63,789 nucleotides of DNA, taken from positions 1 to 63,789 of the IMG/VR virus record IMGVR_UViG_3300043395_000803. The stretch is one strand, 5' to 3'. The DNA comes from a virus. Lineage: Duplodnaviria > Caudoviricetes. The translations under genes were made by a program, and so were the position numbers. This document shows positions 1 through 63,789 of the stretch, piece after piece. The notes beneath the pieces were generated by a model. The model was not told where the DNA came from, made no database searches, and saw nothing but the letters and a program-made list of their open reading frames with translations. How positions within the stretch are numbered: position 1 is the first letter of the stretch; each line of letters starts with the position of its first letter.

Positions 1-329
1 CGTTGGTGTCCGTCAACCAGTGGTTGATCGTGTAACCCTCGGGGATCGAACCGTTGTTCTTCAGCGCGTTGATGTCGTTGTCGGCGGTCGCCACGCGGAG
101 TTCGGTCTCCAACAGACGGGTCGCAACGAATTGCAGTGAAGGCGGAACGATCAGTTTCCGGGGCTTGGCAGCGATCAGCAGACCACGTTCGTCCGTCCAC
201 GCTGCGATCTGGATCACGGCGTTTTCAAGGGACGTTTCGTTGAGGTCAGCACCCACGGTCGGGCGGTTGCTGTTGGTGCCACCAGAGATCAGCGGATGCG
301 CCGTCGAGAACAGGCTCACACCGTCGCCG
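1..329. repeat. Terminal overlap, copy 1 (matches 63461-63789); circular assembly overlap
   Basis: 329-nt direct repeat of the window end, differing at positions 50, 149, 161, 209 and 212; lies inside the capsid gene. Confidence 0.95.
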
Positions 330-736
330 TAGGTCACGGCGGAGTTGAAGCCTTGGTTCAGGATGGCCGCAGCCTTGACCTGCTTGGTGTAAGCCATAGC
401 ACGGGCCAGAGCCTTGGTGTAACGGGCCGACAGAGAGTCGTACAGGTTGTCTTCCATCGCCTCTTCGGTGATGGAGAAACCCATAGCGATGGTCTCGTGG
501 TTGTACCGTGCAGTCCAGGCTTCTTGCGCGTTGTCATACGCAATGGCTTGGCCTTCAGGCTTAACCGGGGCGGCAGAGAAACCAGCCAGTTTGGTTTCTT
601 CTTCGAACGAACGCTCGGAAGTCTCGGTTTCGTAGATTTCCTTGTGTTCTTCGCCGTAACGCTTGTACTCCATGCCAAACAGGGCGTTCAGACCCGGCAG
701 GAGTTCCTTCAGTAGTTGGGCACGAGAAATTGCCAT
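1..736 (-). CDS. Major capsid protein, N-terminal part (continues across the junction to 63288; ~302 aa)
   Basis: ATG at 736 with GGAG RBS; MAISRAQLLKELLPGLNALFGMEY...SERSFEEE...EEAMEDNLYDSLSARYTKALARAM, a Mu gpT-like/HTVC010P-like capsid signature; missed by the ORF track because it runs off the end. Confidence 0.93.
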   Translation of the reverse strand, partial: MAISRAQLLKELLPGLNALFGMEYKRYGEEHKEIYETETSERSFEEETKLAGFSAAPVKPEGQAIAYDNAQEAWTARYNHETIAMGFSITEEAMEDNLYDSLSARYTKALARAMAYTKQVKAAAILNQGFNSAVTYGDGVSLFSTAHPLISGGTNSNRPTVGADLNETSLENAVIQIAAWTDERGLLIAAKPRKLIVPPSLQFVATRLLETELRVATADNDINALKNNGSIPEGYTINHWLTDTN

Positions 737-3446: not shown

Positions 3447-3642
3447 CTTCGTTTTGCTCCATCTTTCGCACGAGGTCGGTGATAAACATGTGTGCGGTTG
3501 AGAGACCCCGGACCTCACCACACATACTGCGGTACTCGGCATAGTCCCGAGCCGCACCATCTACGAGGGCACGGGCGATGGACTCCCGGTGCTCCTCAAT
3601 GTCTTTCAATACCACGGAAAACGCAGTGGTTGCCATGATCAT
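3439..3642 (-). CDS. Small conserved head-module protein
   Basis: 67 aa with DYAEYRSMCGEVRGL motif; overlaps neighbours. Confidence 0.7.
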   Translation of the reverse strand: MIMATTAFSVVLKDIEEHRESIARALVDGAARDYAEYRSMCGEVRGLSTAHMFITDLVRKMEQNEDE

Positions 3643-7488: not shown

Positions 7489-7496
7489 GTTAATCC

Positions 7497-9002: not shown

Positions 9003-9379
9003 TCCAAATTCCTGAAGTTGATGTACACAGGCCGGATCGTCCTCCCAGCCCCCTCCATCTTCTTCACCACCCCCAACTTCACCAGCCGGTTCACGATCTT
9101 GTGAACCCCACTCACCCCGCTTCTCCCAGTTACATACGCAATCTCCCTCACAGTCGGGCTGTACCCAAACCGCTTCCACCACTCATCAATCGCCAAAAAC
9201 ACTTCCTTCTGCGCCGGGCTCATCTCCATCTCCATACACTCACTCTCACTCCTGTCCCCCCTGCGAGCCCTCAATTCCCCTATCTGAACCCGTTTCCGCC
9301 TCTTATCCACATACTTATCCACAGAAACTGGGGATAACTTTTCCTCTCCGGCTGGTGCGATCTGGTGTACTTCAGTCAT
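8999..9379 (-). CDS. LexA-type winged-HTH DNA-binding protein (no peptidase domain); start uncertain, possibly 9235
   Basis: MSPAQKEVFLAIDEWWKRFGYSPTVREIA...SGVHKIVNRLVKLG...RTIR matches the LexA N-terminal domain. Confidence 0.8.
   Translation of the reverse strand: MTEVHQIAPAGEEKLSPVSVDKYVDKRRKRVQIGELRARRGDRSESECMEMEMSPAQKEVFLAIDEWWKRFGYSPTVREIAYVTGRSGVSGVHKIVNRLVKLGVVKKMEGAGRTIRPVYINFRNLE
9303..9337. promoter_or_regulatory. Cluster of three DnaA-box-like 9-mers
   Basis: TTATCCACA at 9303-9311 and 9315-9323 (perfect); inverted TTATCCCCA at 9329-9337 (8/9). Confidence 0.65.
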
Positions 9380-27767: not shown

Positions 27768-27787
27768 TGGAAATCTTCATTAGTTTG
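27761..27787. repeat. AT-rich palindromic site, copy 3, at a convergent gene junction
   Basis: AAACTAATGGAAATCTTCATTAGTTTG; each arm supplies AAC-TAA ending one of the two convergent genes. Confidence 0.85.
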
Positions 27788-33700: not shown

Positions 33701-36700
33701 ACCAGTTATCCCACGCTGCCTTCATCTGCCGCAGTTCGTTGATGCGGTTGTTGACAGCCTGGGGATCGCGGATGTCGATGCCTTCGGAAGCAGCCAACTG
33801 AGGATTGCGGGCAGCACCAGAGATGGCGGACAGACGGGTCTGGATTTCCTTCTGCTTGCGACCGGCGATCTTTGCCATCTCCTCTGCCTCTTTCATGGCA
33901 GAGTCGTCAAAGCCAAACATGTCGGTCGTGGTGTCCGCTTCCCCAGCCAGGGCGCGGACAGCCTGCATCATGTTGACGGCAGTCGCAGCAGACTTGCCAT
34001 CAGCAACAGCCTTGATGCCTACGCTTTGGAGCCGGGCATCGCCGGGCGCGTTGATTGCGATGAGGTACGCAGCCTCATCAGGGATTTGGTCGGCACGGAC
34101 ACCGGCAATGAGTTCATCACTTCCGTCATTTGCGATTGAGAAAGCCCGCTTGCCCGGCGCTCTTGCCAGTAATCCTCGTGCGTTTGCCGTTTCCCGGTCG
34201 AGCCCTGTGCCTTTGAAGTAGTTGACATAGTCCTTTACCTTTCCTTGACCGTCACGAATGTTGAGTTCTGCATCCAATACAGCAGCCATGTCACGGGTGA
34301 ATCCCTTGGACTCATCGTGAATCTGCGCCGGGATGGTCTTCTCACCACTGCGCTTTGCAAGATCAAAGCGATGCCGACCGGAGATGATCTCCATCCGGCC
34401 ATCAGTCCTGCGCCAAACCTGAATAGGCGCAACACCCGTGCGCTCGAACTTACCGCCCAGCGCCTCAACGATGCCTTCCTTGTCTGCGCCCGTCTTGAAC
34501 TGCGGCACATCTTCTGACAGGGTCAGTTGATTGACCGGAACTTCAACAACCGCCTGACGAGGAATTTCTGTCTGAGGCGGCAGCGGTTCAACCTGAAGCG
34601 CATCTTTAGCCGCTTCTTGTACTGGCTCGCTGGGCTCCAGTTCTTTCTTTGGAATAACAATGTACTCGCGTCCGTTGGTGGTGACAAAACTCACCCCATC
34701 GTAGCCTTGATCTCGCGCGGCATTGACAATGTCAGCCATGCCTTGATCTTGGCGAAGGCCCAAAGCAGTTTTTGCGTCTGTCCAACGAGGCACGTCCAAC
34801 AGTTTGTTAAACGTGACCTCCGTTTCTTGAATGTTGCCTTCGGCACCGGCATACATCTCCGCAATCTTCCGGTCGGGAGACATGAACCGTGCGTCGCCAA
34901 CAGTTGGCTGACCTTCCTTGCCTTTCTGAATTCCACGGAACAGTTTGACTCTTTCCGTTTGAGCAGGCGGAACCTCGGCAGGCTTGGCTTCCTTAGCAGA
35001 AGGCGCAGTGCCCTTTTCTATTACGCCGCCAGTGTTCGTGACACGATTGCCATCGGCATCGGTATAAAACTGAGGGGCCAAACGAACCCAGATTTGATCT
35101 AGGCCCATTGCTTTACCAGACTCAGGCTCTCCTTGGATTGGCTCAGGAAGAATTGCGGTTACGTTTCCACTCTTATCACGAATGACTCGAACAACCTTTA
35201 CCCGGTCGCCGGTCTTACTACCATCATCTGTAATAATAGTGTCGCCTTCTTCGATAGAGTTGGCGAGTTCTTGAGCCTGCTGTTGACGGCCTTGCGGAGT
35301 ATCAGCAACCTGTATAGGGTTAGGATTCTTCCAAACCACAGGCCCCTCTGCTGCACGCTCAAGTTCCTCAATTGCAGACTGTTGCTCACGCATAGTCGCA
35401 GGAGCGGCAGGTGAAGGGGCGGGAGCGCCCTCAAGCGCAGGTTCAACGCGCTCGCCAGGAACTGGGGGCACAGGACGTTCCTCAAACCTCGGCTCAATCC
35501 GTTCGGCAGGGGCCGGAGTAACTGGAGGAGCGGGGGGCGCGGCAGGAGGGGAAACCTCGGGAGCCTTCCTCGATTCTTGGATGGTGCTAAGTGCGGTAGT
35601 GCCAACGGCTTGAGGCCCAGCGCCCAGGGCTTCGGCAACGATGTCGCCCAGTTTAAATTCACCGGTTGCTTGTTGAGCAGCCGCCTCACCTGCGGCTTCC
35701 AACCCGACTTCACCCGCAACGTTTACCGCACCACGGCCAATGTTTCGCGCAAGTTGCCCAGGCCGCAAAGGACGGGCAACCAAACCGCTAAGAGCATCAG
35801 CGGCTGCGATCACCGTGCCACGGGTAACCGCTTTTTTCCCTGCTTGCTTCAGGAACTCTGGGTCACGCAACTTGGCGTCAATCGCCCTCTCATCCTTCAT
35901 GTTGACGTTTGCATCTCGCAACGAATCAACCAAGGACGAGAAGTATTCGACCGGGAAACTGCCGGTTGCAAGGCCGGTCATCATGCCTGCAAGACCGCCG
36001 CGCAGCAGAACGCCAGCAGCACCGCCGATCAACGACGGGAGGACGTTGGGCGCAGACTCAACAGACAGTTGCTGGGCAATACCCAACGGGTCTTTGAGGA
36101 ACGCCTCCTTCGCAGCCTGATAGTCGCCCTTATTGAGCGACTGGATCATCTGATCGGCCAAAGGATTCCGGGCGTACTGCTGCTGCTCCGCGCCATAGGA
36201 AACTACCTTGGCTATGTTGGACGGCAACACCCTCTCAAACTGAGCGCGGACTTTTGCCCTCTGCTCAGGCGACATGTCTTGATAGCCAACCGGGTCTTCG
36301 GATGCGGGGACAGTCTCACCCCGATCAATCCTGTCAAACACAGCCAAGTTCTCAGCAGTGCCCTTTGCCGTACCTGCAAAGTAACTTTGCTGAAGCCCTG
36401 CAAGGCCAGACTTAAACTGCTCTGGGACAAGCCCAAGGTTAAGCCCGGTGGTTCGATTGCGGTCAGCAATAGCCTCAATGCTCGACTCTGCCGCTTCCAA
36501 AGTGCGGGCGGCTTCATCCTGGGCAAGACGGCGCTTGATACGTTCCTGCTCAGGAACCATGTCCATGATGTCCCCAATCGTGGGAGAGACATCAGGGAAC
36601 TGCACACGGGGAGCCGGACCTGCCGCTGGTGCAGCAGGCTGACGAGGTGCAGGTTGTTGCTGCGCGGCGGCTAGGATGCCCATCAGACCCTCACGGCCTT

Positions 36701-37055
36701 GGGTTATCTCACGGCGGCGCTGATCCTCAACGGATAGGTCGGCAAGGATTCTCTTGGCCGCATCAGCACGGATGCCTCTGCCCATAGAGGCTTCTTGCAA
36801 AGCGGCACGGCGCTGCTCAGGAGGTAGGTTGCCGTACTCCGAGCGAACTTGCTCCACGAACTCCGGGCGGAGCATGAAGCCCGCAGGCATGGACGGGCGC
36901 TGATCCAGCCCAGCCTGTACGGCAAGAGTTTGAGGAGGACTAACTGGCGCTGCCGGTGCTTGCTCACCAAGGTGAGACAGAATTTTCGCCTTGGCCGCTG
37001 CCGGGTCAGTTTCAACAAGTTCGTAAAACTGACCTTTGTATTCGTAGACCGGCAT
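27780..37055 (-). CDS. Giant polyvalent (DarB-like) internal virion protein: ART-like, ParB-like, C5-MTase-like, zincin and LPD38-like regions
   Basis: 3091 aa; LFRG...FMSP...AEMYA...QGYDGV (~34650-34955); PIQVW...IISGRHR (~34250-34550); LSLFD...AACPCTDF...IENP...YTKKT...RS.TP (~32555-33150); HEILHH plus SEFWA (~30780-31110). Confidence 0.8.
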   Translation of the reverse strand: MPVYEYKGQFYELVETDPAAAKAKILSHLGEQAPAAPVSPPQTLAVQAGLDQRPSMPAGFMLRPEFVEQVRSEYGNLPPEQRRAALQEASMGRGIRADAAKRILADLSVEDQRRREITQGREGLMGILAAAQQQPAPRQPAAPAAGPAPRVQFPDVSPTIGDIMDMVPEQERIKRRLAQDEAARTLEAAESSIEAIADRNRTTGLNLGLVPEQFKSGLAGLQQSYFAGTAKGTAENLAVFDRIDRGETVPASEDPVGYQDMSPEQRAKVRAQFERVLPSNIAKVVSYGAEQQQYARNPLADQMIQSLNKGDYQAAKEAFLKDPLGIAQQLSVESAPNVLPSLIGGAAGVLLRGGLAGMMTGLATGSFPVEYFSSLVDSLRDANVNMKDERAIDAKLRDPEFLKQAGKKAVTRGTVIAAADALSGLVARPLRPGQLARNIGRGAVNVAGEVGLEAAGEAAAQQATGEFKLGDIVAEALGAGPQAVGTTALSTIQESRKAPEVSPPAAPPAPPVTPAPAERIEPRFEERPVPPVPGERVEPALEGAPAPSPAAPATMREQQSAIEELERAAEGPVVWKNPNPIQVADTPQGRQQQAQELANSIEEGDTIITDDGSKTGDRVKVVRVIRDKSGNVTAILPEPIQGEPESGKAMGLDQIWVRLAPQFYTDADGNRVTNTGGVIEKGTAPSAKEAKPAEVPPAQTERVKLFRGIQKGKEGQPTVGDARFMSPDRKIAEMYAGAEGNIQETEVTFNKLLDVPRWTDAKTALGLRQDQGMADIVNAARDQGYDGVSFVTTNGREYIVIPKKELEPSEPVQEAAKDALQVEPLPPQTEIPRQAVVEVPVNQLTLSEDVPQFKTGADKEGIVEALGGKFERTGVAPIQVWRRTDGRMEIISGRHRFDLAKRSGEKTIPAQIHDESKGFTRDMAAVLDAELNIRDGQGKVKDYVNYFKGTGLDRETANARGLLARAPGKRAFSIANDGSDELIAGVRADQIPDEAAYLIAINAPGDARLQSVGIKAVADGKSAATAVNMMQAVRALAGEADTTTDMFGFDDSAMKEAEEMAKIAGRKQKEIQTRLSAISGAARNPQLAASEGIDIRDPQAVNNRINELRQMKAAWDNWSVNPELIAEIRAERGAAPPVLTTQTPEELRAKAEREERARKEEQAKPAEVPPAEEFVLTGSERAADEAAARGQMELAPVEEKAEKKAEAKPGEAVDENDTGFRGASDEEVKEVAGAFKDAEQSQEDERETRVFDPPTKNEVVRIEDKVRVYTKDRGYMTLAEAKQEIAKWKQHAFEQGDTGVNANKIVLSLFDLTGEWSMPWDAAGYQVYRFDIQTDPEFGDVNKFSADFFNDIFGAFEGQDIYAILAACPCTDFASSGARHFAAKDEDGRTLESVELVRQTLATIEYFKPSVWAIENPVGRIEKLTGLPPWRSSWNPNHFGDPYTKKTLLWGRFNADMPIAPVEATEGSKMHRMYGGKSQATKNARSVTPEGFAYAFFMANNAVDNPVLAISNKYDLMDRAVFEEAVNAGMTYEEISSVVDEPYYFSRDYKQAEADLRAAAKGASPEVAEKKQPPLLPVPEGFEPKKGRKTQLVMAARELAAGRITKAEYDEYVEAYLPITTVLGGVMEPPVEDGMMTEILTKKIKQKKDPDKVNAPIADGTRVGLRMDIPALEWGKANGVNGSVVSIHKGAPLENATAGDNLSYRSTGAIKNVKMAIRREDEAFLIAQQAEPELRRKKTGEEYLKSVDEKKPQQTMEGEWVNMSPEETFRLIQQNLDNPDWVQVSLDPLRHSYFYARDSKRPVLSADEALQVGRFVLVKNPVYGEREQFLYSIDTDQPKGYDFSSQEPIAGEQSNRSPSLKRKVKTLNRQREDGKITPEKFVEEVDAAVKADEESKYDKAAAARVRGADYIRQRLLEAKRRGELSEESVNLAEWFILQNENLVGDLGIAIKTPKKGGTAGMYATLQRIMVLMKGAANDSTIVHEILHHLERMMPAEVQQAIRKAWLRSLVAAQKKAKTPEEKFFFEALMNHHLGTGSVRYLKDAPKFILMLSGMGVDTNLYDRSYRVAIEMLRLGLVKMDNYQFVNPSEFWAVNGSEIVRGRYEAVQGGVLARLKNWLKELGERIKGMFGMRSDAPLIKALDSLSKADGKFVSRDMLSSQEDYLQIGKNIYGRKPLAAWTMPDETKLDADLIYRLQNKQIDLKRAVDAIEEAAGGIEDRWDAYLQEELYHGRTARETANFLREEVRPLLEAMNEEDVSIADLEEYLHNRFAEERNIQIAKVNPAYPDDGTPFSGGSGIDTADAQAYLNNLTPEQRRKYERLAKMVDGITKGTREYLVDSGLEERSTIDSWESAAPNYVPLNRGDVEYSTTVGTGTGLGYSVRGPSSRRATGSRRTVVDILPNIIMQRERAIVRGEKNRVAVAVYGLAVQNPNSEVWLAVNPQAKTSKKKAVDELINMGLTQQDAEGLMEEPAATVVDPQTGLVTKRVNPVLRGAGNVLAARVNGQDRYVFFNTQNPRAARMVSSLKNMDADQLGTAMSLVASLTRWFASINTQYNPIFGPYNFLRDFQGAAIQLSGTELADSRAKVLSPVNIAGAMSGIYSTLRRERAGAQPATKQWADLWRDFQAQGGQTGYRDMFSRSQERAEALQREIDRMNQGVVRRGGNAIFGWLADYNETLENAVRLSAYKAGLDAGMSKERAASLAKNLTVNFNRKGQVAVQVGALYAFFNSAVQGTTRLLQTVAKMERPGDITSLRLTKAGKAVIYGGLLIGTAQAIALAAMGYDENEPPDFVKDRNLIIPIGDGKYLAWPLPLGYHVIPAIGRILTEWMIAGGKDPAKRIVHLADVILDAFNPIGNAGLSAQTIAPTIADPIVALTENRDWTGKKIAREDVSKLDPTPGYTRARENASWISRQISYYLNLASGGDKDKPGVFSPTPDQIDYLAGQVTGGLGREILKATKTTEAMITGEELAPYNIPLAGRFYGDTKAGYAESARFYKNLEELNILDNQLKGRQSRKESVTEFVKENPKLRLVESARETERNIRELRKQRKELVEKGASREAVKAKENLITNQMKRLNDQVKKLEETPKKPAN

Positions 37056-37063
37056 GATTTAAC

Positions 37064-38440
37064 TTAATCGAGTTTGATCGGATTCTGTCTCGTCCCCTTT
37101 GGCGCTGCAACAGGAGCAGGTGCCGGAGCAGACCCGGCAGGATTACCAGTCAATCGCTCAAGCGCCTTGGCCCGCTTCTCGGCTTCCGGCAACTCTGCAA
37201 ACGCAGGATCGCGGCGGCTCATGTCCGTGACCAAGCGGGCAACGGTACGGTTGAACTCACCGGAGGTAATCCCTGTAGGAACCTGAGAGCCATCAGACAT
37301 GATCAAGATGACGCTGCCATCAGGCCCGGAAATTGTCTTCTGAACCCGAGCCGCTTTGCCCGTGGTGCCAGCCCCTTGCGATGCAGCAACTCTTTCCCTG
37401 ATGCCCTGAAGCCGCATGTCCTGACCGCGACGGCGGGTTTCCTCAGTCTCTGCCGCACGTTCGCTGCGACCGTACTCCATGCCCATTTGACGGCGGAAGT
37501 CCACCTCTTTTAGTTCGCGCTGCTGACGAAGCCGCTCTGCTTCCATCAAGTCTCTCTGCGCGGCATCAAACCTACCATTGGCGGTCTCAAATCGAGCCTT
37601 GTCCAACAGACGGCGCTCCTTGGCGGCTGAGTTTTGGATGTCAAAGCGCAACTCATTCATGCGCTCAACAGCCGCCTCAATTGCCTTCTCATTGCGGATG
37701 ACGCTCTCAGCGCCAGTACGCATGGCTTCACCGAAACGCGCACCACGCGCTCCAAGGAAGAACTGACGACGGGCATCCTCTTGCTGTTGCGCCTGCCTGC
37801 GGGCGGCAAGATCGGCGTAATACTTGGCCTGCTCATCCCCACGGGATTGAATGCGCTGGGCCTCCGCCGCCATGTAGTTCGGATCAATCCCCTGACTTTG
37901 CAAGAACTGACGCCGGATTTCCTCCGCCTCTTTTGCTTTCTTCAGCGCATCCTCGCCTTTGATCTCACGAGCCTGGGCGCGTCGAAGAGCCTCAAGGCCA
38001 AGGGCAAACTGCGCCTCGGGAGTTTCTTCTCCTACGTCAATCGGGGCGGGCTGTGCAGCCGAACCAGCCTGGGCAGGCTCAACAACGAGACTATCTTCGT
38101 CACCGTTGTAGCCGACGATGCCGCCATAGGCAAAGTTGCCAATCGGCGGACTCATCGCCTCCAGGCCACCGACTTGCTGTTGCTGCATGGCATTGTTCAT
38201 CAGCGCCTCTTGCGCCTTCTGCCTTTGCATCGCTTCAATCTGCCCAGCAAGCCCAGCCTGTTGCGCTGCCTGAGCCATCCCCATCATCGGGGCAGTTGCC
38301 TGCTGCATCAGTTTTGCAGCAACGGTAGGCGTACCGTCAGGAGTAGTGGGTTGGAACTGCCCGGACTGCGCCGCCTGCCCGAGCATCATTACCCCAAGAA
38401 GCGCCTCGGGAATCTGGGTTTGCTGTTCTTGCATAGCCAT
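37064..38440 (-). CDS. Internal virion / ejection protein (putative)
   Basis: 458 aa, A/Q/E/R-rich helical; adjacent to the giant protein. Confidence 0.6.
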   Translation of the reverse strand: MAMQEQQTQIPEALLGVMMLGQAAQSGQFQPTTPDGTPTVAAKLMQQATAPMMGMAQAAQQAGLAGQIEAMQRQKAQEALMNNAMQQQQVGGLEAMSPPIGNFAYGGIVGYNGDEDSLVVEPAQAGSAAQPAPIDVGEETPEAQFALGLEALRRAQAREIKGEDALKKAKEAEEIRRQFLQSQGIDPNYMAAEAQRIQSRGDEQAKYYADLAARRQAQQQEDARRQFFLGARGARFGEAMRTGAESVIRNEKAIEAAVERMNELRFDIQNSAAKERRLLDKARFETANGRFDAAQRDLMEAERLRQQRELKEVDFRRQMGMEYGRSERAAETEETRRRGQDMRLQGIRERVAASQGAGTTGKAARVQKTISGPDGSVILIMSDGSQVPTGITSGEFNRTVARLVTDMSRRDPAFAELPEAEKRAKALERLTGNPAGSAPAPAPVAAPKGTRQNPIKLD

Positions 38441-38451
38441 TTGCAGCCTCT

Positions 38452-39369
38452 TTAGGGAGCCTTGGGTGCCGGATTCGTAGCCGGAGCGTTTGCAGGAGTG
38501 TTCGGGAACAAAATTTTGTACAAGGTCTCAAGCCCGCCCTGTGCGTTAAGCAGTTGCACAAACGGACTCTCTTCCTGATACGAAACATTCTGTGCAGCAA
38601 ACGGCATGTTCTGAAGCATGGACTGCTGAAATTGCAGTTGCTTGTACGGATAGTCCCGCTGTTGTTGGAACTCAGCAATATCCGCCCCGATGCCCTCCGC
38701 CTCGATGGCTCGCTGTGCTGCACCTGCGCTACCCAACATTCCAGCAAGACCCATAGCCTGGGCCTGCTCTTTGTTGTACTGATCCATCGCCTTGTCATAG
38801 GCGGTGGCGTAGCCTTGGCCGATGGTCTTACCCATCGTGTTCAGCAGGTTGCGCTGCAACTCAGCATCAAGGATTGCCTGTCGACCACCGCCAAATGCTC
38901 CGGCTTTGGTCATCCTAGAAGCATTCTGCATCTGCTCAATTTGAGACTGGCGCCGCAGTTCCTCCAGTTGCGGCTGAAGCACATTCTGGAGATACGGGTT
39001 CATGTACTGACCGGTGATGCCCGTAGGGGCAGCCGTGGTCTGCATGGGTCCGGTGGTCGAAGCCGTCGGGATAGTCGGCGCACCGGTAGAGGTGAACGAC
39101 TGCCCCAGTTGCCCAGGGAATCCCATCTTCTCAAGACCACTAAAGTATTGCGTCTGAAGAGAAGAAGGACCGGCAGTCAGCGGTCCTTGGTAGGTCTGAT
39201 ACGGCTGCTCTGTCAAAGCCGCCGTCTTGCCCAGCATGTCAGTGACATACGGTGCAGCCCACGAAGACAGGGTCTGCTCTTGACCAGACACCCTACCGGC
39301 AGTTGTGCCGCCGGCTCCGGCTGAACTGGCCGCGCTACCGGCGGTAGGAAAAAAGTTTGAGAGCGTCAT
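38452..39369 (-). CDS. Internal virion / DNA pilot-like protein (putative)
   Basis: YMNPYLQNV...AGAFGGGRQ...QQRDYPYKQL; Q/G/A-rich. Confidence 0.65.
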   Translation of the reverse strand: MTLSNFFPTAGSAASSAGAGGTTAGRVSGQEQTLSSWAAPYVTDMLGKTAALTEQPYQTYQGPLTAGPSSLQTQYFSGLEKMGFPGQLGQSFTSTGAPTIPTASTTGPMQTTAAPTGITGQYMNPYLQNVLQPQLEELRRQSQIEQMQNASRMTKAGAFGGGRQAILDAELQRNLLNTMGKTIGQGYATAYDKAMDQYNKEQAQAMGLAGMLGSAGAAQRAIEAEGIGADIAEFQQQRDYPYKQLQFQQSMLQNMPFAAQNVSYQEESPFVQLLNAQGGLETLYKILFPNTPANAPATNPAPKAP

Positions 39370-39378
39370 GTTTAATCC

Positions 39379-40221
39379 TTACGCAAGTTTGTTCAGTTCA
39401 CGGTCAGCGCCGGACGGCTTGCCGCGCTTGGCCTTCTTTGCCTGCGCCTCGATGCGGTCAAGCATTGCATAGAGTTTCCTCGCACCAGCATCAGAGGAGC
39501 CGTTGCCAATCTCCGAAACCACACGGGCCGGGATCACGAACTCGCCATCTGCCAACATGGCCTTTTGGCCGGAACCGGCAAACTGAGCAGGGATGGAATC
39601 CGATACGCCATCACCGTTCCCCTTGAGGTACCGGCCCTTGGCAAGCATCTCCAAACCGCCAACCATTCGACCGCCATCAGCAGCAGAGATGGTTTCTGTT
39701 TGTTCTTGATTTGGTGCGGGCGCAGGAGCCGGTGCTGTTGCGACTGCGGGCAAATATCTGCTCGGGGCAAAGTATGTAATTCCCCCTTGCCCTGGGCGGT
39801 ATCCTGATGGGCGCTGCTGGGCAAACGGCACCTGCTGCCGTTCAAACGTGTACTTGGGGATCGTGCCTTGGAAGCCTACTCGGGTGGTCGGTGCGTTGAA
39901 AAAACCAGACCTGTTGCCAAGGGCTGCTAACGCCAAAAGTGGTAGCCCGCCCAAATCTCCCTTTGGATTAAGGAACGTCTTCAGAAGTCCGCCAACGTCT
40001 TTGACACCGCCACCAAGAGTCTTGAGGATGGAAGAAAGATCAAAACCGCTCGCCCCACTATTAGCACCATAGTCGTATGTCGGGTTGTACGGCACATCTC
40101 CAGAACCGAAGTCCATGTAGTCTGACCCCAAGTTGCCAGTTGACATGCTGCCTGGGTCGCCAAATTCAAAGCCACCAGTGTTTGGACTGCTGCCGGGATC
40201 ACCGTATTCAAATCCGTTCAT
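39379..40221 (-). CDS. Virion protein with conserved GDGxSDSIPA domain
   Basis: GNGDGVSDSIPA...LADGEFVIPARVVSEIGNGSSDAGARKL. Confidence 0.7.
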   Translation of the reverse strand: MNGFEYGDPGSSPNTGGFEFGDPGSMSTGNLGSDYMDFGSGDVPYNPTYDYGANSGASGFDLSSILKTLGGGVKDVGGLLKTFLNPKGDLGGLPLLALAALGNRSGFFNAPTTRVGFQGTIPKYTFERQQVPFAQQRPSGYRPGQGGITYFAPSRYLPAVATAPAPAPAPNQEQTETISAADGGRMVGGLEMLAKGRYLKGNGDGVSDSIPAQFAGSGQKAMLADGEFVIPARVVSEIGNGSSDAGARKLYAMLDRIEAQAKKAKRGKPSGADRELNKLA

Positions 40222-40222
40222 A

Positions 40223-43200
40223 TCAGGCCTTTCCAATAATTTGCATCAGTTCTTCGATGGTCGCAGCAGGATTTTCCTGTGACAACGCAATGATTTGATC
40301 CACGGCATCCTGCGTCATATTTTCGTCCGCAGACCCTTGTAGCGCAAGTTCCATAGCATCCCGGGCTTTTGCCGCGCGGCCTTGGAAATCCGTCACGTCC
40401 GCCATTGACTGGGCGCGCTTGCCCGGCTGTCCGTACTTCATTGCCTCGTAGTAAAAGGCTTCGTACTTTGGAAGTTCGGACAGTTGGCTTACCTGTTGCT
40501 GCCGCATAGGCATAGCCCGAGGTACGGCAACAGGCGTAACCCTTGGCGCCACCTTGGGCGTCACCACCGGAGTCACTTTCGGGGTGACCACGGGAGTTAC
40601 TGTCGGGGTGACCGTAGGAGTAACGGTAGGCGTGACAGTGGGTGTCACGGTTGGCGTTACGGTGGGGGTAACTGTCGGCGTAACCGTGGGAGTCACCGTC
40701 GGAGTGACCGTGGGCGTAACGGTAGGCGTAACCGTTGGTGTGACGGTAGGCGTCACAGTCGGGGTCACCGTGGGAGTTACGGTTGGTGTCACTGTTGGAG
40801 TAACAGTGGGCGTCACGGTGGGGGTGACTGTTGGTGTGGCCGTCGGCGTCACAGTCGGAGTGACTGTTGGTGTGGCCGTAGGAGTGACAGTAGGGGTGAC
40901 CGTGGGGGTCACTGTAGGAGTTACTGTCGGGGTCACAGTAGGCGTTGCCGTTGGAGTGACGGTTGGAGTCACCGTCGGTGTAACCGTTGGAGTGACGGTT
41001 GGGGTAACCGTGGGTGTGACTGTGGGAGTCACAGTCGGGGTGACTGTCGGGGTTACGGTTGGAGTGACCGTGGGTGTGACGGTAGGGGTAACCGTCGGAG
41101 TAACCGTTGGCGTGACGTCTGGAGTAACCGTAGGCGTTACTGTTGGAGTAATGGCGGGCGCAACCGTCGGCGTTATCGTGGGCGTAACAGTTGGGGTGAC
41201 AGTGGGAGTTACCGTTGGCGTAACGGCGGGGGTAACCGTTGGCGTTACTGTTGGCGTAACAATTGGAGTTACTTCTTTGGGCGGTGTTACTTCTTTGGGT
41301 ATCACATCCTCCTTCGAAACCCCAGGGGTTTGCGGGGTAGTCATAACACCTTCCTTTGGCACGCCGAGGTCACCCGCAGTCAGCACATTACCAAACATGT
41401 CCGTAAGGATAGGAGTGCCCGTTGCAATCGTGGGGCCAGTCTTGGTGCCTGTATTTAGCACCAGATCGGTCAGGTCGGTAATATCTTTTGGCAGGCGCGT
41501 ACCCGTGACCGTGACAGTTTGATCAACCGATCCAGGGATATATGGAGCAGCGTTGGGGTCGTACCCGCCATAATACTTACCCGTGATGCGGTTGTACTCC
41601 CACTGCAAATTGGGATCGTTCGGCGTCTTAGACAGTTCGGCTTCGACCAGCGGCAACCAATCGGCAAGTTGTATAGCAGCACTATAGGTATTAGCGTAAT
41701 CATCTGTCAGGGCTGCACCGCCACGCCGCACTCTATTGATAAGGTCAGATACGGTTGGGGGTTTTGTGCCTGTAACATCCCGGGCTTCTACATCAATAAC
41801 ATCGCCGGGCTTGGTGGTTGTTTGCCCTCCTGGCTTATTAAGAAGTTTGTTTATATCTTCTGCGCCCTGGGCAACCCCGCCGTACAACTCATTCCAAAAC
41901 TTAATTGCCCCGGACGGGTCTGTCTTGTACGCAAGCCGTTCTATATCTTCAGGGGTAAATGAATACCTCTGATTCCCGACCTGATAAGAAAAACTGCCAG
42001 ACGCATCTCTGGTAACCGGCACGGGCACAATCTTGCCCGCTTCATCCATGATCCCGTAGAAGATGTCACCGGTTTTGATGTTAAGGTTGACGCCCGGATT
42101 TATTTTTGTAGAGACCTTGCCATCGCCGGATGTCTGCACCATCCCATAGTCATCATCGGGATCGTAGACACTGACGCCCCCGGCAAGGGAATACACCGGG
42201 TCACTGATGATGTTTGCCGCAGTAGTTGTAGTTGGCGCTGTCGTAGGCGGCTGTGTACCCGGGGGGCGGCTTGCCATCGCAGCAGACAACTGCTGCGATG
42301 CGGTGAGGATAGCGTTCAGGTTACCGGAGGTAATTGCTTGCGCCAGAGAGACAGCACGTCCGGCAACGACGGTATCCGGGCTATCAGCCAACTGCCCAAG
42401 CGACGCCAGGGCTTGACCGTATTGGCCGTTCTGTATGGCCGTAATGGCTGAAGCCCCCTTGAGTGCGTCGCCAAAAGTAAAGTTGGTGCCGCCAATCGTG
42501 GTGTTTAGAACGTCCTTACCAAGTTCACTGCCTGCCGCCGCTGAAAGTAACGCACCCCAATTCTCGTTCTTGATAGCATTGGCAATGTTTGCGCCGGTCG
42601 AGATATTTGCAAACGTAGAAGTCGGAACACCCGCAAGGTTGCCCGTGTTGACAACTGCTCCGCTGATTGGGTCAATTGCCGTGGCAGCGCCGGACAGACC
42701 CGCGAGCGCACCTGCACCGGCGGCGATTGCCCCGAGATAGTTGCCCTGTCCAGCCTGAAATGCGGCGTTGGCAAGCATGCCCCACGGCCCAAGAGCCGGG
42801 GCAATCATTGAGAAAATGGTCCCTACGGGAGCCTTCCATTCTTCGGAATAATCAAATCCTTTTGGTTGGCCGACAATCTTACCGTCTGCACCAAATTGAT
42901 AAACGATTCCGCTATCGCCGCCGGTAAAGTAGCGCACCTCACTGCCAGTTATGTTTCCGGCGTCGTCGTATGTCAGTTTCGTCTGAAGCGGCAGTCCTCG
43001 ATCATTCTTTGTTTCTTGAAACGCCTCAAACCCGCCACCCGTGCGATTACCGGAAAAGTCATACCCAATCGGCATTGACCGCACGGTGTAGTTACCGACT
43101 TGTACGCCGGGGTCGTTGTAAGTAGAAGCCTCACCCATCAAGTTTGCCTGGGCATAACTGTTTCGTAATTGATCGGCAATACTTGGGTCTTTACTTAGCA

Positions 43201-43888
43201 GCGTGGATAACAAATCTTGCGGCTTTGCAGACGCCGCCGCGCTGATTGCTGAGGCGGTTGTGTTTTGGGTGGTCGGCGTTGGCGTGGGTGCCGTAGGGGC
43301 GGGGGTTGGAGTTGTGGGCGTTGGCGTTGGCGAAACACCAAGATCACCCGCCGTCAGTGTCTGACCGGACGTATCCGTGATGACCGGCGTCGTCGGCGTT
43401 ACTGGGGTTGGGACTGTCGGTGTGGGTGTAGGAGTAGGTGTGGGCACCGTACCTATAACCGTATCTTGCAAAATACTTTGCAAGTCCTCTGGGGTGTAAT
43501 CGCCGCTCCTATAGAGATTAAGTAACTCTTGACGGTCAAACTGTGTAGGGGCAATGGTAGTAGTTGCCGCCGTGGGGGCCGTGGTAGTCGGCGCGGTAGT
43601 AGCCGTCGTAGAAGGCGGTTGCGTACCTGTTGCCCGATAGTAATCGGCCAACGTGAAGTTGGTACCGAGGGCGCTGTTCCACTCAGAGATAGTTTGCTCC
43701 GGGCTCCACCCCTGCTGCGCTGCATACTGAAGGCCGCGCACAGTAGCAGCAGCATGATCACCGGGGCTCCCGGCGTACATATAAGACTTGAAATCAAACG
43801 GAGCCGGGGCAGCGGCCTCACCGCCGCCGACGATATTCAACAGGTCGTTTTCTGTCGGCTCGCGCTCATCGAAGTAGTTCATCGCCAT
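40223..43888 (-). CDS. Large Pro/Thr-rich (mucin-like) virion-region protein
   Basis: 1221 aa; N-terminal TTAP/PTPT tracts, central G/A-rich helices, ~60 (PTVT) repeats. Confidence 0.8.
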   Translation of the reverse strand: MAMNYFDEREPTENDLLNIVGGGEAAAPAPFDFKSYMYAGSPGDHAAATVRGLQYAAQQGWSPEQTISEWNSALGTNFTLADYYRATGTQPPSTTATTAPTTTAPTAATTTIAPTQFDRQELLNLYRSGDYTPEDLQSILQDTVIGTVPTPTPTPTPTVPTPVTPTTPVITDTSGQTLTAGDLGVSPTPTPTTPTPAPTAPTPTPTTQNTTASAISAAASAKPQDLLSTLLSKDPSIADQLRNSYAQANLMGEASTYNDPGVQVGNYTVRSMPIGYDFSGNRTGGGFEAFQETKNDRGLPLQTKLTYDDAGNITGSEVRYFTGGDSGIVYQFGADGKIVGQPKGFDYSEEWKAPVGTIFSMIAPALGPWGMLANAAFQAGQGNYLGAIAAGAGALAGLSGAATAIDPISGAVVNTGNLAGVPTSTFANISTGANIANAIKNENWGALLSAAAGSELGKDVLNTTIGGTNFTFGDALKGASAITAIQNGQYGQALASLGQLADSPDTVVAGRAVSLAQAITSGNLNAILTASQQLSAAMASRPPGTQPPTTAPTTTTAANIISDPVYSLAGGVSVYDPDDDYGMVQTSGDGKVSTKINPGVNLNIKTGDIFYGIMDEAGKIVPVPVTRDASGSFSYQVGNQRYSFTPEDIERLAYKTDPSGAIKFWNELYGGVAQGAEDINKLLNKPGGQTTTKPGDVIDVEARDVTGTKPPTVSDLINRVRRGGAALTDDYANTYSAAIQLADWLPLVEAELSKTPNDPNLQWEYNRITGKYYGGYDPNAAPYIPGSVDQTVTVTGTRLPKDITDLTDLVLNTGTKTGPTIATGTPILTDMFGNVLTAGDLGVPKEGVMTTPQTPGVSKEDVIPKEVTPPKEVTPIVTPTVTPTVTPAVTPTVTPTVTPTVTPTITPTVAPAITPTVTPTVTPDVTPTVTPTVTPTVTPTVTPTVTPTVTPTVTPTVTPTVTPTVTPTVTPTVTPTVTPTATPTVTPTVTPTVTPTVTPTVTPTATPTVTPTVTPTATPTVTPTVTPTVTPTVTPTVTPTVTPTVTPTVTPTVTPTVTPTVTPTVTPTVTPTVTPTVTPTVTPTVTPTVTPTVTPTVTPVVTPKVTPVVTPKVAPRVTPVAVPRAMPMRQQQVSQLSELPKYEAFYYEAMKYGQPGKRAQSMADVTDFQGRAAKARDAMELALQGSADENMTQDAVDQIIALSQENPAATIEELMQIIGKA
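40535..41290 (-). repeat. 12-nt coding tandem repeat encoding (Pro-Thr-Val-Thr)n, ~60 units
   Basis: Period-12 repeat whose variation is mostly at third codon positions. Confidence 0.92.
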
Positions 43889-43892
43889 AGTC

Positions 43893-45266
43893 TTACTGCG
43901 TCAGATCGTAGAAGGAGATTGAACCGACGCCATCGCCTTTGGTGGCTCCAGATACCGTCCGCACGGCCAGGGTAAGCGTGTCACTGACCCCCGCGATGGA
44001 GGCACCCAACTGCAAATCCCAGTTGTAGGACACCGTGGAAGACGTGTTGATCGTGCCGCCGCTGCCGGTGCTGGTGACGTAATCCGTTTGCACGATGGTG
44101 CCGCCGGACAGGGCAGTAGCCGCAACATCGTAGTCCACGTTAGAGTCCGAAGGCACCGTTGCCGCCCAGGTCGCACTGGTCAGCGTGGCATTCTTAATTA
44201 GCGCCACCTCATAGTTTTGACTGGTCAAGGGCAGGAACTGCGTCCGATTGGGAAGAACCACAGAACCTGTGCGCCCAGAGGCCAAGCGGATGGACACGAT
44301 TGGGTAGAACGCCGCCGTGTCGATATTGGTAAACGCTGTGGTGCGACGCGCCACATGGTCGATGGAGGTCTGCTCAAACCCACCCTCAGACACCACCGAA
44401 CAGCAGATGGCCTTCATGGATGCCGCAACAGCAGAGGTTGTGGTCACAATCTCGTACCTGACCGGCAGAATGGCCGTCGTCATGTAAACATTGGTGATGT
44501 CGTTGGCGTTGTTGAACGTGTGGCAGACGATGTACTCACCGTTGATGATGAAGCCGCACCGGACCGACCCGACACCGAGCCACTCAAAGTCCATCCACAG
44601 AATCTGCGCCTTGCTCGGGTCAAGCGTGTAGCCGGAAGCGCCAGAGCCGTCCAACTTATCGCCGTTCCAACTGCTTTGGTTTACCGTCCGGGCATCCGAC
44701 ACCGCTCCCGTTACATAAGAGCGCAGGACAAACGAATAGGTGCCATCCACTCGTTGGAAGAACACCCCGTTTTGATCGTTGTAGTATCCCACCCGCTGCG
44801 TGAGGTTCAGGCTCTGGCTGCTGTCCATCACGAAGGTGGCAAGCACCAACAACCCCTTACCGGGCTGATACGGCATGGAGCGATAGGACTGCCGCTTGAC
44901 CGAGCCCACACCGGCCCCGGTGACTTCCATCTTCACTGCCGCTTCGTTGGGCAAGAACGTAGTTGTACCCGTGCCGGTTGTGGCTACATCAAATTGATTA
45001 TCGGCAGCGTAGCGATTCTGGCTGTCAAAGAGCGTGTAGGGCTGACTGACCCGCAGCCGCCCAAAGGCGTCCGTGTTGGTGCCGCCGATGGAAATTGGGA
45101 TGGGGGATGCAGTTGTCACGATTCGACTCAGCAGTGAATTAAGCCGGTTGAAGTACAGACGCAGGACGTTGTTAAGCGCCTCTTGATACCGAGAGTCATA
45201 GCCCCCCGGAGCCAGTGGCAGGTTGGGTGGCGCAGGGACGGTTGCATCTTCAATAATGAAACTCAT
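43893..45266 (-). CDS. Tail/virion structural protein
   Basis: N-terminal PNLPLAP..Y...LRLYFN module fused to a beta-rich DAFGRLRVSQPYTLFD domain. Confidence 0.7.
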   Translation of the reverse strand: MSFIIEDATVPAPPNLPLAPGGYDSRYQEALNNVLRLYFNRLNSLLSRIVTTASPIPISIGGTNTDAFGRLRVSQPYTLFDSQNRYAADNQFDVATTGTGTTTFLPNEAAVKMEVTGAGVGSVKRQSYRSMPYQPGKGLLVLATFVMDSSQSLNLTQRVGYYNDQNGVFFQRVDGTYSFVLRSYVTGAVSDARTVNQSSWNGDKLDGSGASGYTLDPSKAQILWMDFEWLGVGSVRCGFIINGEYIVCHTFNNANDITNVYMTTAILPVRYEIVTTTSAVAASMKAICCSVVSEGGFEQTSIDHVARRTTAFTNIDTAAFYPIVSIRLASGRTGSVVLPNRTQFLPLTSQNYEVALIKNATLTSATWAATVPSDSNVDYDVAATALSGGTIVQTDYVTSTGSGGTINTSSTVSYNWDLQLGASIAGVSDTLTLAVRTVSGATKGDGVGSISFYDLTQ

Positions 45267-45268
45267 AT

Positions 45269-47125
45269 CTAGCGCCTGCCGTCCATGCGAACGTCGATTC
45301 GCGGCGAGCCCAACTGCCACGCCACGCCAAGCGCATCAGACTGGGCTTTCATAATCAACTGACGCCCGCGCACCCGGATGTAAACGATGTTGGTGAACTG
45401 CTCAATCGGCACGGTGGCGCTACGCGTGACTGCTGCGCTGCTCGACCCACCCAGGGACTGAGGCGTGTTAAACCCGGAGCCAGAACCCTTCATTGGGATC
45501 AGCGTCATCGTAATAGACGGGTTAGACGCAGTAGACCCGGAGAACGTCACGTCAGGCAGCATGCGCCAGATGAACCCGAAGTTCTGCCCGTCCTCGATGT
45601 CAAATTCGGCGGACTCGATGTAGGCATTGATCGCCACGGGCGTGCCGTTGACGTTATCGTCCACCCCATTTTCATGCAGCACGATGTTGTTGAGGTAGGT
45701 CGTCGCAATCGGGTAGTCCAACGTACCGGAATCTAGCCATGCTGTGCGGGCCATCGTGCCGTAGTACCAAATCTTCTCAAGGTAGTTGTAGACTACATAC
45801 CGATCTACCGTAATGGAATTAGCCGAGCAGTAAAACCACCAGACCTCGTTGAAGCCCTCGTTAGTCCCGGCAAAGAACTGGGCACCCTGAGACTGATTGA
45901 TGTCGCCAAAGACATACCGGCGCAGATCGCAGGGGAGCGTTTGCACGCGACCGTCGTAGGCATAGAACTTGTCCACACCCATCCAGTACACCACGCCAGA
46001 TGCCACGATGGCTGCGTTCTGACTCTCAATCGAGATGTTGTCGCCAAGCAGTTGAGCGCCCCAGACTTCTGGAGCACCCAGATACTGCAAGGAATAGACA
46101 GCAGAGTCCGTGAACACCACAATTTCTTGACGGGTCTGGACTGCCGTGACGATCTCTGACCCGTGAGACAGGCGCAGGCTACCGGCTTGGTTAGTGGCTG
46201 TAGGAGTCCAGTCCGTTGCGCTTTCCTGATCCGACCACCGAATCAATAACGGGTCTTGCGCCGCAGAGCCGATCTCGTTGCATCCGAAGGCAAACACAAA
46301 CCGACTGATGTCGGACACATAGATTTCGTTCTGTACGGTGGGCACACCGTTGGCCCCGGACAGACTGGAAAGCAGGACACCACGGGTACTCACGCCACTC
46401 GTGGCATCCCAGTAATACATGCCGCCACCGCGAGGCCCGAAGATCAGGTCTTCGCCAAAGTTCATCTGGCTCCACAAGCGAATCGACGTGTTGGACGAAC
46501 CGCCAACACCCCACGTACCGGAACTCCATGCACCGGCACCCCAACCCGCCAACGGAACTGCAATAGCCGGGCCTGTGTTGATCTGATACGCCGCAGAAAC
46601 TGCTGAACCGCCCGTTGATACCGCAGGGATGGCCGAGGCCGTGGTAATCGTGTACGAGCCGGAGTTGATGACCGTGATCTGGAACTCGCCGTTGAGCAGG
46701 GATGCGTATGTACCCGTGACGCCGCTGAAGGTTACAAAGTCCCCCGTGATTGCTCCATGCGACGAAGCCGTGACCGTGACCGTTGTGGTTCCGTTGCCTG
46801 TGAAGGGGTCAGCACCAAGAGTGACCGTGGTTCGCAGCGGCGTGACATCGTTGTACATCCCGCCCTGTTCAATATAGAACTTGAGGTTGGTGCCAACACC
46901 GATGAGGTTGACCGAACTCAGCGTCAACCAGTTCCACAGAGAGCGGCACACCCCGAGGAATGTAGATGTAGAAAGCGGTGCCCACCCCCCGATCTTCTCA
47001 GGAGTACCTTGGCGGAAACGTACCTTATCGCACTCATACCAACCGTTCTCGTTGGTATAGCGGGTGTTCTCTCTGTTCACCCCTGGGCGGAGTTGCAGAC
47101 GCTTTAGTGGCACGTTACACTCCAA
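45269..47125 (-). CDS. Tail tube/nozzle (stabilisation) protein
   Basis: PGVNRE...DKVRFR.G.PEKIGGW; IRWSDQE; EVWWFY; RVRGRQ...LG.PRID. Confidence 0.8.
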   Translation of the reverse strand: MECNVPLKRLQLRPGVNRENTRYTNENGWYECDKVRFRQGTPEKIGGWAPLSTSTFLGVCRSLWNWLTLSSVNLIGVGTNLKFYIEQGGMYNDVTPLRTTVTLGADPFTGNGTTTVTVTASSHGAITGDFVTFSGVTGTYASLLNGEFQITVINSGSYTITTASAIPAVSTGGSAVSAAYQINTGPAIAVPLAGWGAGAWSSGTWGVGGSSNTSIRLWSQMNFGEDLIFGPRGGGMYYWDATSGVSTRGVLLSSLSGANGVPTVQNEIYVSDISRFVFAFGCNEIGSAAQDPLLIRWSDQESATDWTPTATNQAGSLRLSHGSEIVTAVQTRQEIVVFTDSAVYSLQYLGAPEVWGAQLLGDNISIESQNAAIVASGVVYWMGVDKFYAYDGRVQTLPCDLRRYVFGDINQSQGAQFFAGTNEGFNEVWWFYCSANSITVDRYVVYNYLEKIWYYGTMARTAWLDSGTLDYPIATTYLNNIVLHENGVDDNVNGTPVAINAYIESAEFDIEDGQNFGFIWRMLPDVTFSGSTASNPSITMTLIPMKGSGSGFNTPQSLGGSSSAAVTRSATVPIEQFTNIVYIRVRGRQLIMKAQSDALGVAWQLGSPRIDVRMDGRR

Positions 47126-63287: not shown

Positions 63288-63789
63288 TCAGGCTCCGGGG
63301 GAACCGAAGATACCGAGCGGATCAGAAACGCCAAACGAGTAGCGTTCACGAGCCTTGTAACGGGCGTTGCCGGTATCGAAGTCTCCGTCCATGGAAGTAC
63401 TCATGGGAGTACGGATGAAGTGCTTCAGACCGTTGGGCACGTCCGTGGTCAGGAACCAAGCGTTGGTGTCCGTCAACCAGTGGTTGATCGTGTAACCCTC
63501 GGGGATCGAGCCGTTGTTCTTCAGCGCGTTGATGTCGTTGTCGGCGGTCGCCACGCGGAGTTCGGTCTCCAACAGACGGGTCGCAACGAATTGCAGTGAA
63601 GGCGGAACAATCAGTTTCCGAGGCTTGGCAGCGATCAGCAGACCACGTTCGTCCGTCCACGCTGCGATTTGAATCACGGCGTTTTCAAGGGACGTTTCGT
63701 TGAGGTCAGCACCCACGGTCGGGCGGTTGCTGTTGGTGCCACCAGAGATCAGCGGATGCGCCGTCGAGAACAGGCTCACACCGTCGCCG
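63288..63789 (-). CDS. Major capsid protein, C-terminal part
   Basis: LFSTAHP...DERG...LIVPP.L...WFL.TD...GDFDTGN.RYKARERYSFG. Confidence 0.93.
   Translation of the reverse strand, partial: GDGVSLFSTAHPLISGGTNSNRPTVGADLNETSLENAVIQIAAWTDERGLLIAAKPRKLIVPPSLQFVATRLLETELRVATADNDINALKNNGSIPEGYTINHWLTDTNAWFLTTDVPNGLKHFIRTPMSTSMDGDFDTGNARYKARERYSFGVSDPLGIFGSPGA
63461..63789. repeat. Terminal overlap, copy 2 (matches 1-329)
   Basis: Direct repeat of the window start. Confidence 0.95.

Follow-up and report, generated by a model that had tools for sequence, protein, structure and literature searches.

A Thr-Pro-Thr-Val repeat tract of a podovirus as the probable acceptor of the phage's own GT60 glycosyltransferase

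PsA of Dictyostelium, a protein with 'O-glycosylated tandem repeats', carries PTVT repeats. Enzymes of family GT60 start mucin-type modification with O-linked N-acetylglucosamine (O-GlcNAc) on Ser/Thr-rich domains in Dictyostelium and Trypanosoma cruzi (a passage of PMC8724618), and gp72 of T. cruzi includes PTVTPTP...-type sequence (an excerpt of PMC3630849). On the viral side, the prolyl 4-hydroxylase (P4H) of PBCV-1 hydroxylates viral (PAPK)n, that is, (Pro-Ala-Pro-Lys)n, repeats (a passage of PMC3634087), and mycobacteriophage glycosyltransferases decorate the C-termini of their own capsid and tail-tube proteins (Freeman et al. 2023, as cited in a passage of PMC12619734). Very few systems are known in which phage-particle proteins are glycosylated. 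GT60 enzymes occur only as protist mucin or Skp1 glycosyltransferases in the full-text literature that we searched, also for O-glycosylation of phage virions, and a phage system of GT60 and Pro/Thr (PT) repeats is not described there. Here we analyse a virus record of 63,789 nt (IMG/VR IMGVR_UViG_3300043395_000803; the whole stretch is hereafter the window), an HMO-2011-like podovirus as judged from its gene content. The window encodes a protein of 1221 amino acids (aa), P0001 (40223–43888, minus strand, as are all features of the window given below), which contains a long Thr-Pro-Thr-Val (TPTV) tract, and, elsewhere on the genome, a GT60-family glycosyltransferase. We put the probability that the tract is an acceptor of the phage's own GT60 enzyme at roughly 60%.

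The TPTV tract

The tract (40502–41269) corresponds to residues 874–1129 of P0001 (~256 residues) and consists of 64 consecutive xPxx tetrads, 48 of which are exactly TPTV and the others single substitutions (for example, TPTA, TPVV and TPKV). Tandem Repeats Finder reported a period of 12 nt at 40620–41266, with 53.9 copies and 69% nucleotide matches. An earlier note, made from the sequence alone, had described a period-12 tetrapeptide repeat of about 60 copies at 40535–41290, TTAP and PTPT tracts in the same protein, and scrambled synonymous codons as a sign of maintenance at the protein level. The repeat is there, some 20–30 nt away from those positions, and the N-terminal TTAP and PT(P/A)T tracts lie at ~43220–43645 (residues ~82–118 and ~136–223). 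The codon argument also holds. Fifty-nine distinct 12-mers encode the 64 tetrads, the third-position entropy is 1.96–1.97 of 2 bits at all four codons of the unit, and the 48 TPTV units have a mean pairwise nucleotide identity of 0.749, which is the value for random third positions. Adjacent TPTV units (0.72 identical) resemble each other no more than units far apart do, exact internal repeats reach 20 nt at most, and the Thr and Val codon usage of the tract resembles that of the remainder of the genome. Synonymous sites are thus saturated while 48/64 units remain TPTV, which points to maintenance at the protein level.

Other assemblies contain the same tract. A 7,827-nt contig from a different assembler, built from what may be the source run, covers 39800–42000 with 0 differences, and a second run of the same sample tiles the tract, again with 0 differences. 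In another study (run X4), a contig of 5,882 nt that is ~93% identical in the flanks keeps the tract in a form ~90 nt shorter between anchors at 40630 and 41250 (read off piece coordinates), and the listed differences within the tract are spaced by 3 nt. The long period-12 repeat in a metagenome-assembled record could raise the suspicion that it arose in assembly or is a slippage array without coding function, a reading that is barely credible given the diversity of the 12-mers, the shortness of the longest exact repeat, a reading frame without interruption over 1221 aa and flanked by conserved modules, a homologous tract in the related genome G023 and the reproduction of the tract without differences by another assembler. 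The tract is real, coding and held at the protein level, and is neither slippage nor artefact.

The tract is a Thr/Pro-rich tandem repeat in which Thr flanks Pro, as in mucin-type acceptor domains. By analogy, it would act like such a domain but, as part of a bacteriophage protein, does not belong to the secretory mucins of eukaryotes.

The X4 relative also differs where P0001 gives way to the following gene (40049–40234), with 184 nt skipped and 109 other letters in their place.

Co-variation with GT60 among relatives

GT60 is a rare gene among phages. It was found in 4 of 50,697 named phage records, all of them jumbo phages, and in none of the relatives fetched by other markers (0/18, 0/50, 0/50 and 0/3; both sets of 50 were fetched by the neutral 'stab' marker). 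A single-protein scan of viral contigs for GT60 gave 4 loci and was replaced by an alignment-based scan, which gave 143 viral contigs, 80 of which were kept. PT tracts were called in six frames in 30-aa windows with a P+T/S fraction of at least 0.6 and with P and T/S each at least 0.2. Such a tract occurred within ±10 kb of GT60 in 4 real cases among the 80 loci, indicating that adjacency is not the pattern in these phages; whole contigs were therefore read, and we compared the protein in the position of P0001, between the stabilization/virion-structural and the ejection-protein genes (hereafter the slot).

Clade A comprises the relatives of the window, podoviruses of ~50–70 kb with portal proteins 58–72% identical. 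All four GT60-positive members with a readable slot (G000, G023, G026 and G038) carry a PT tract of 338–431 aa there, whereas in the 15 GT60-negative members (at least 90% complete or with the portal–capsid site covered) the PT tract measures 0–82 aa and the P+T fraction is at most 0.19. G023 has both the oxygenase–GT60 gene pair and the TPTV/SPTV unit of the window in a slot protein that is otherwise not detectably similar, and the TPTV tract used as a protein query picks up G023 only, not PT-rich proteins generally. In clade B, which comprises unrelated podoviruses of ~39 kb, all seven GT60-positive members encode a homologous protein of 650–715 aa filled with PPTL/TEPP-type (P/T/E-rich) repeats. 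The three GT60-negative homologues (one from a genome 99% complete), 46–51% identical in the C-terminal domain, have (GAS)n or Asn-rich repeats instead. Across both clades, the P+T fraction of the slot is 0.30–0.36 in 11/11 GT60-positive records versus at most 0.19 in the negatives (0/18 reach 0.28), without overlap. Considering complete genomes, a PT-rich slot was present in 7/7 GT60-positive and 0/12 GT60-negative ones (Fisher p = 2e-5, relatedness ignored); the base rate of PT-rich slots was 8 in 96 marker-fetched loci. A 171-kb GT60-positive phage also has a PT/S tract, of 105 aa in a 2057-aa protein. Given this co-variation in a homologous or syntenic slot protein, the phage probably glycosylates the P0001 stalk.

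GT60-positive and GT60-negative genomes are interleaved on the stab and portal trees, and the interleaving on the stab tree fits either repeated loss or cassette exchange. Portal identity to the window is 67–72% in the positive and 58–68% in the negative genomes, and the GC content overlaps (0.46–0.56 versus 0.47–0.57).

The earlier note had itself named a test, whether long PT repeats go together with GT60 in related genomes, and the comparison came out on its side. Of the two enzymes that the note had recognized, the GT60 stands firmly and the P4H is the weaker assignment. The distance of ~35 kb that it had given between the enzyme and repeat genes applies to the linear map only: on the circular map, the GT60 gene is 23 kb upstream of P0001, on the same strand.

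Further GT60 sequences came from metagenome contigs. A scan of these gave 80 GT60 loci, 24 of which were flagged within ±3 kb, and was not used; as read by us, 23 of the flagged loci are out-of-frame noise in high-GC DNA and one (L418) is a real PT repeat. GT60 relatives with 37–42% identity occur on cellular-looking contigs of 139–562 kb (L409, L412, L422, L424, L442 and L445), and the family therefore also exists outside phages. A GT60-bearing fragment and a PT-slot fragment, considered as one genome, overlap at only 77–79% identity and come from different phages.

The GT60 enzyme and the oxygenase

The GT60-family glycosyltransferase (3639–4640) matches PF11397 with an E value of 3.1e-51 and 175.3 bits against a cut-off of 21, over profile positions 93–350 of 352 and a second stretch at 1–42, and its true start is likely Met21. 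All five aligned phage sequences (45–98% identity) keep a 'QIDSH' motif, which is of the D-x-H type; the metal-binding motif of GT-A enzymes is D-x-H/D-x-D.

A 164-aa 2-oxoglutarate (2OG)-Fe(II) oxygenase (4577–5071; the 'P4H' of the earlier note) lies directly between the portal and GT60 genes. The H92-x-D94, H144 triad and the 2OG-binding R156 are invariant in 5/5 sequences. Foldseek comparison of its structural model with the PDB gave TM-scores of 0.42–0.59, with P. putida P4H (4j25 and 4iw3), 3dkq, the Dictyostelium prolyl hydroxylase domain (PHD) enzyme 6t8m, PHD2, Tpa1 and OGFOD1 as top matches and the non-prolyl enzymes PiuC, PolD and KanJ among the further ones; a sequence search of the PDB with the oxygenase gave no usable match. 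The G023 copy scores 31.4 bits against PF13640. The oxygenase gene adjoins GT60 in the window and in the nearest GT60 clade (L005 and L034–L037; 47–50% and 97% identity). PF13640 is present in 17 of 39 GT60-positive records versus 0 of 15 GT60-negative relatives. In G026 and throughout clade B, GT60 and PT repeats occur in the absence of a PF13640 match.

The oxygenase–GT60 cassette is located between the portal and capsid genes, directly downstream of the portal gene, with at least four open reading frames (ORFs) separating GT60 from the capsid gene, and the portal–capsid interval is ~1.4 kb shorter in GT60-negative relatives (G068 compared with the window). On the 2,970-nt contig L377, the oxygenase is 98% identical to that of the window and the adjoining GT60 only 74%, identities that suggest recombination inside the cassette.

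The slot protein and its genome

P0001 combines a conserved family core (42209–43201; residues ~230–560), with 'TYDxxGNITGSEVRYFTGGDSG ... FDYSEEWK ... PALGPWGMLANAAFQA' followed by a Gly/Ala-rich hydrophobic stretch, and a conserved C-terminal module (40226–40501; residues 1130–1221) that ends in '..EELMQIIGKA'. Its homologues have in common an N-terminal 'ENDLLNIVGG', the core with its Gly/Ala-rich hydrophobic stretch and a C-terminal '..EELMKIVxG'. The repeat between core and C-terminus, which directly precedes the C-terminal module in all homologues read, differs from one to the next: Pro/Thr-rich, (TG)n, Thr/Asn/Gln-rich, Gln-rich tandem (coiled-coil-like by eye) or a 23-aa peptide. As each homologue has its own repeat, the tract can be seen as the local version of a variable spacer. 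Very long non-PT repeats occur in GT60-negative slot homologues (L018 8861–13408, L015 9173–13309, L273 3349–6519 and L276 3748–6519), in the form of (TG)n/(GTGV)n of more than 150 aa, (GAS)n/(GATGAS)n and Asn/Ile/Thr-rich 'ANILTNANV' arrays; the slot homologue P0003, which is outside the GT60 scoring, has Gln-rich tandem repeats. P0001 is the only protein of the genome with long Pro/Thr tracts. The genome's only other mildly mucin-like stretch is in a 362-aa protein (55344–56432), with a 60-nt tandem repeat at 55915–56110 that encodes proline-free, Ser/Thr-rich units of the 'SESATGTD' type.

No Pfam family matches P0001, and PHROG gave only a low-complexity match to phrog_15511 (function unassigned). 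Searches of named phages with P0001 and with a 12-kb region found nothing, to which the low-complexity filter probably contributed, and nothing informative on the core came from the protein atlas (best score 0.79). The N-terminus (MAMNYFDEREPTENDLL...) is non-signal-like by eye, and the sole hydrophobic window is around residue 385. Podovirus internal or ejection proteins include P22 gp7/gp20/gp16 and T7 gp14–16. P0001 is located at the head of the ejection-protein gene block, and similarity to a characterized ejection protein was not found in Pfam, PHROG, the named phages or the protein atlas. Gene order around the slot is the same in G023, G026, G038 and Phage DSL-LC04 (from lake water), where a 'tail tape measure protein' is annotated; P0001 has no sequence similarity to the syntenic DSL-LC04 proteins, and the G038 slot protein and its syntenic DSL-LC04 counterpart have motifs in common at the N- and C-termini (E values of 1e-10 and 1e-7). 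As judged from synteny only, P0001 would be an internal or ejection-module protein.

Upstream of P0001 are the genes for a virion structural protein (phrog_1645; 43893–45320) and a 'stabilization'/virion structural protein (phrog_3287; 45269–47125). The downstream block (27780–40236) comprises, in this order, a 285-aa ORF, a 'DNA ejection protein' (phrog_4287; 38452–39369), a 458-aa ORF and a 3091-aa polyvalent protein (27780–37055) with LPD38, DNA methyltransferase-like and ParB_N-like regions at the end of the ejection module; its position is equivalent to that of the DSL-LC04 'DNA transfer protein'. The portal gene (5068–7500), upstream of the oxygenase–GT60 cassette, adjoins the large terminase gene (7497–9182), and a 1396-aa tail fibre/spike (50353–54543) matches PHROG tail spikes repeatedly and carries a Peptidase_S74 intramolecular chaperone domain at its C-terminus. 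The oxygenase, GT60 and P0001 share their strand with all morphogenesis genes.

The record is rated 100% complete (CheckV). Its first and last 329 nt (1–329 and 63461–63789) overlap with 98.5% identity, the record carrying no terminal-repeat flag, and the major capsid gene crosses the record junction (736..1 joined to 63789..63288), which together indicate a closed genome of ~63.5 kb. DSL-LC04 is the closest named relative (68% identity in one structural protein). The stretch is present in sequencing runs labelled freshwater metagenome; runs X3 to X24 contain only small shares of it and were not used for habitat.

Proposed mechanism and alternatives

We propose that GT60 would act in the cytoplasm late in infection, before assembly, and put N-acetylhexosamine, presumably GlcNAc from the host UDP-GlcNAc pool, onto the tract. 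The sugar may be placed on Thr and/or on hydroxyproline made by the adjacent PHD-like oxygenase. The outcome would be a stiff, extended and protease-resistant glycosylated stalk, serving as a spacer just before the conserved C-terminal module of the putative 1221-aa particle protein. Given that GT60 and PT repeats occur without the oxygenase in G026 and clade B, Thr/Ser linkage is the common denominator; direct Thr/Ser glycosylation would be the simpler common mechanism and hydroxylation an add-on in some lineages. From the genomic comparison we infer that GT60 acts on the tract, which sugar is added and by what linkage, that this happens in the cytoplasm, where in the particle the protein is located and what physical role the stalk has.

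Several points weigh against this proposal. Two changes suffice to account for both traits on the portal tree, which has only 2 independent pairs, both concordant, with which a sign test cannot reach significance; together with the G038 lineage and clade B, they make about four independent contrasts, and the Fisher and Mann–Whitney p-values take no account of relatedness. A possible exception is G120 (39 kb, 61% complete): its slot contains a PT tract of 371 aa, GT60 was not found in its contig, and the site where its relative G038 has GT60 is covered and empty. Seven other PT-rich slots are on fragments in which GT60 was not scorable, G074, the nearest to G023 by the stab protein, has a slot without a PT tract (GT60 not scored), and the tract and GT60 genes are not adjacent. 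For the enzymes, the AlphaFold model of GT60 was built from 5 sequences and has a mean predicted local distance difference test (pLDDT) score of 30, and no PDB sequence match to GT60 was found by phmmer or profile search; the oxygenase scores 22.6 bits against PF13640, under the cut-off of 27, and the pLDDT of its model is only moderate (68). The modification, the sugar, the linkage and the presence of P0001 in the virion are predictions from sequence; overall, the interpretation is supported by comparison of genomes.

Near the empty GT60 site, G120 (L358 5622–9277) encodes a 273-aa PF13640 oxygenase. TPR-repeat proteins are encoded next to the G038 GT60 site in both genomes (636 aa in G120; 397 aa in G038, L128 237–1427), and that of G038 has a weak Glyco_transf_9 match. 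The TPR protein and oxygenase of G120 may represent an alternative modification cassette.

Alternatives differ in what the sugar is attached to and in whether the tract is modified at all. If the oxygenase makes 4-hydroxyproline in each T-P-T-V unit and GT60 adds GlcNAc to it, like PhyA and Gnt1 on Skp1, the glycan would be on hydroxyproline and not on Thr. The adjoining genes in the window and the nearest GT60 clade, the invariant triad, fold neighbours that include PHD-type prolyl hydroxylases (for example, Dictyostelium 6t8m), the enrichment of PF13640 with GT60 and the use of (T/S)PTV by both gene-pair genomes with a readable slot (G000 and G023) all speak for this linkage, but GT60 tracks PT-rich proteins without PF13640 in G026 and all of clade B, and proline is only a putative substrate of an oxygenase whose fold neighbours also include PiuC, PolD and KanJ; we regard hydroxyproline linkage as possible, though on balance unlikely. 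The tract could also be low-complexity spacer sequence that stays unmodified and serves to set the length or flexibility of an ejection or fibre protein, with GT60 and the oxygenase modifying another phage or host protein. Homologues fill the slot with (TG)n, (GAS)n, Asn-rich, Thr/Asn/Gln-rich, Gln-rich or 23-aa repeats, and such diversity in one position suggests that length or extension, not chemistry, may matter; the distance of 23 kb between tract and enzyme genes and the PT-rich slot of G120 without GT60 at the syntenic site point in the same direction. An unmodified spacer nevertheless leaves unexplained why Pro/Thr content tracks GT60 in two clades (11/11 versus 0/18, at a base rate of 8/96), and the genome encodes no other protein with a mucin-like tract; this account appears rather unlikely to us.

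The co-occurrence itself could reflect shared ancestry or a shared host or habitat (for example, both genes being adapted to one host envelope) and not an enzyme and its substrate, as might be argued from the small number of independent contrasts and from the mosaic nature of phage genomes. GT60-positive and GT60-negative genomes are, however, equally distant from the window and interleaved on two gene trees, they overlap in GC content, and the pairing recurs in the unrelated 39-kb clade and in the 171-kb phage, which makes this explanation improbable. Modification of the tract by the phage's own GT60 is thus the reading that we favour.

If it is true, small and abundant lake and ocean podoviruses would glycosylate, and perhaps hydroxylate, a particle protein of their own by eukaryote-like chemistry, with effects on particle stability, protease resistance, crossing of the host envelope and possibly recognition. 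Two small soluble enzymes and a repeat peptide constitute a directly testable enzyme–substrate pair, and the presence, within the family, of other repeats in place of PT repeats in genomes lacking GT60 offers an unusually clean comparative handle on the composition of low-complexity spacers. In a broader and distinctly speculative version, which is doubtful as a whole, aquatic podoviruses would run a complete cytoplasmic mucin-type glycosylation with GT60 as the initiator and sometimes a PHD-like prolyl hydroxylase; it would be dedicated to the repeat spacer of an ejected internal protein that has to reach across the host envelope, spacer composition (PT versus TG, GAS or Asn-rich) would be switched wholesale with gain or loss of the cassette, and GT60 and P4H/GT60 pairs, studied until now in protists, would be a widespread phage and bacterial invention. 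Were the wholesale switch true, the slot protein would be a natural swap experiment for enzyme–substrate co-evolution.

Comparison with known systems

P0001 resembles podovirus ejection proteins and the DSL-LC04 'tail tape measure protein' in gene position and in its Gly/Ala-rich hydrophobic segment, but has no detectable sequence similarity to them. As in mycobacteriophages, glycosyltransferases of the phage would act on proteins of its own particle; the passage citing the mycobacteriophage work mentions neither GT60 nor a Pro/Thr repeat acceptor. Like PBCV-1, the phage encodes both a P4H-like enzyme and tetrapeptide repeats rich in proline. PBCV-1, however, is a giant virus of eukaryotes whose P4H is of the collagen type and has no described GT60 partner, whereas the bacteriophage enzyme is PHD-like and, at 164 aa, minimal.

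In the Skp1 pathway of Dictyostelium and Toxoplasma (PhyA and the cytoplasmic GT60 Gnt1), a PHD-type oxygenase is paired with a GT60 enzyme; in the phage, the genes of GT60 and the PHD-like oxygenase abut. Skp1 is modified at one proline, in contrast to up to 64 candidate sites in the phage tract, and many GT60-positive phages lack the oxygenase. Protist GT60 and mucin systems (modB–PsA, T. cruzi mucins and gp72) share with the window a PF11397 enzyme and a tandem Thr/Pro-rich domain, the acceptor in protists and the proposed one in the phage. Their enzymes are Golgi type-II membrane proteins with secreted substrates, whereas the phage enzyme would be soluble and act in the bacterial cytoplasm on a virion protein without a signal peptide; the phage tract is also far longer (64 units) and codon-scrambled, and the activity of the phage enzyme is a prediction. 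The phage case is set in small podoviruses and combines non-adjacent genes, an oxygenase partner and a switch of repeat composition within a protein family.

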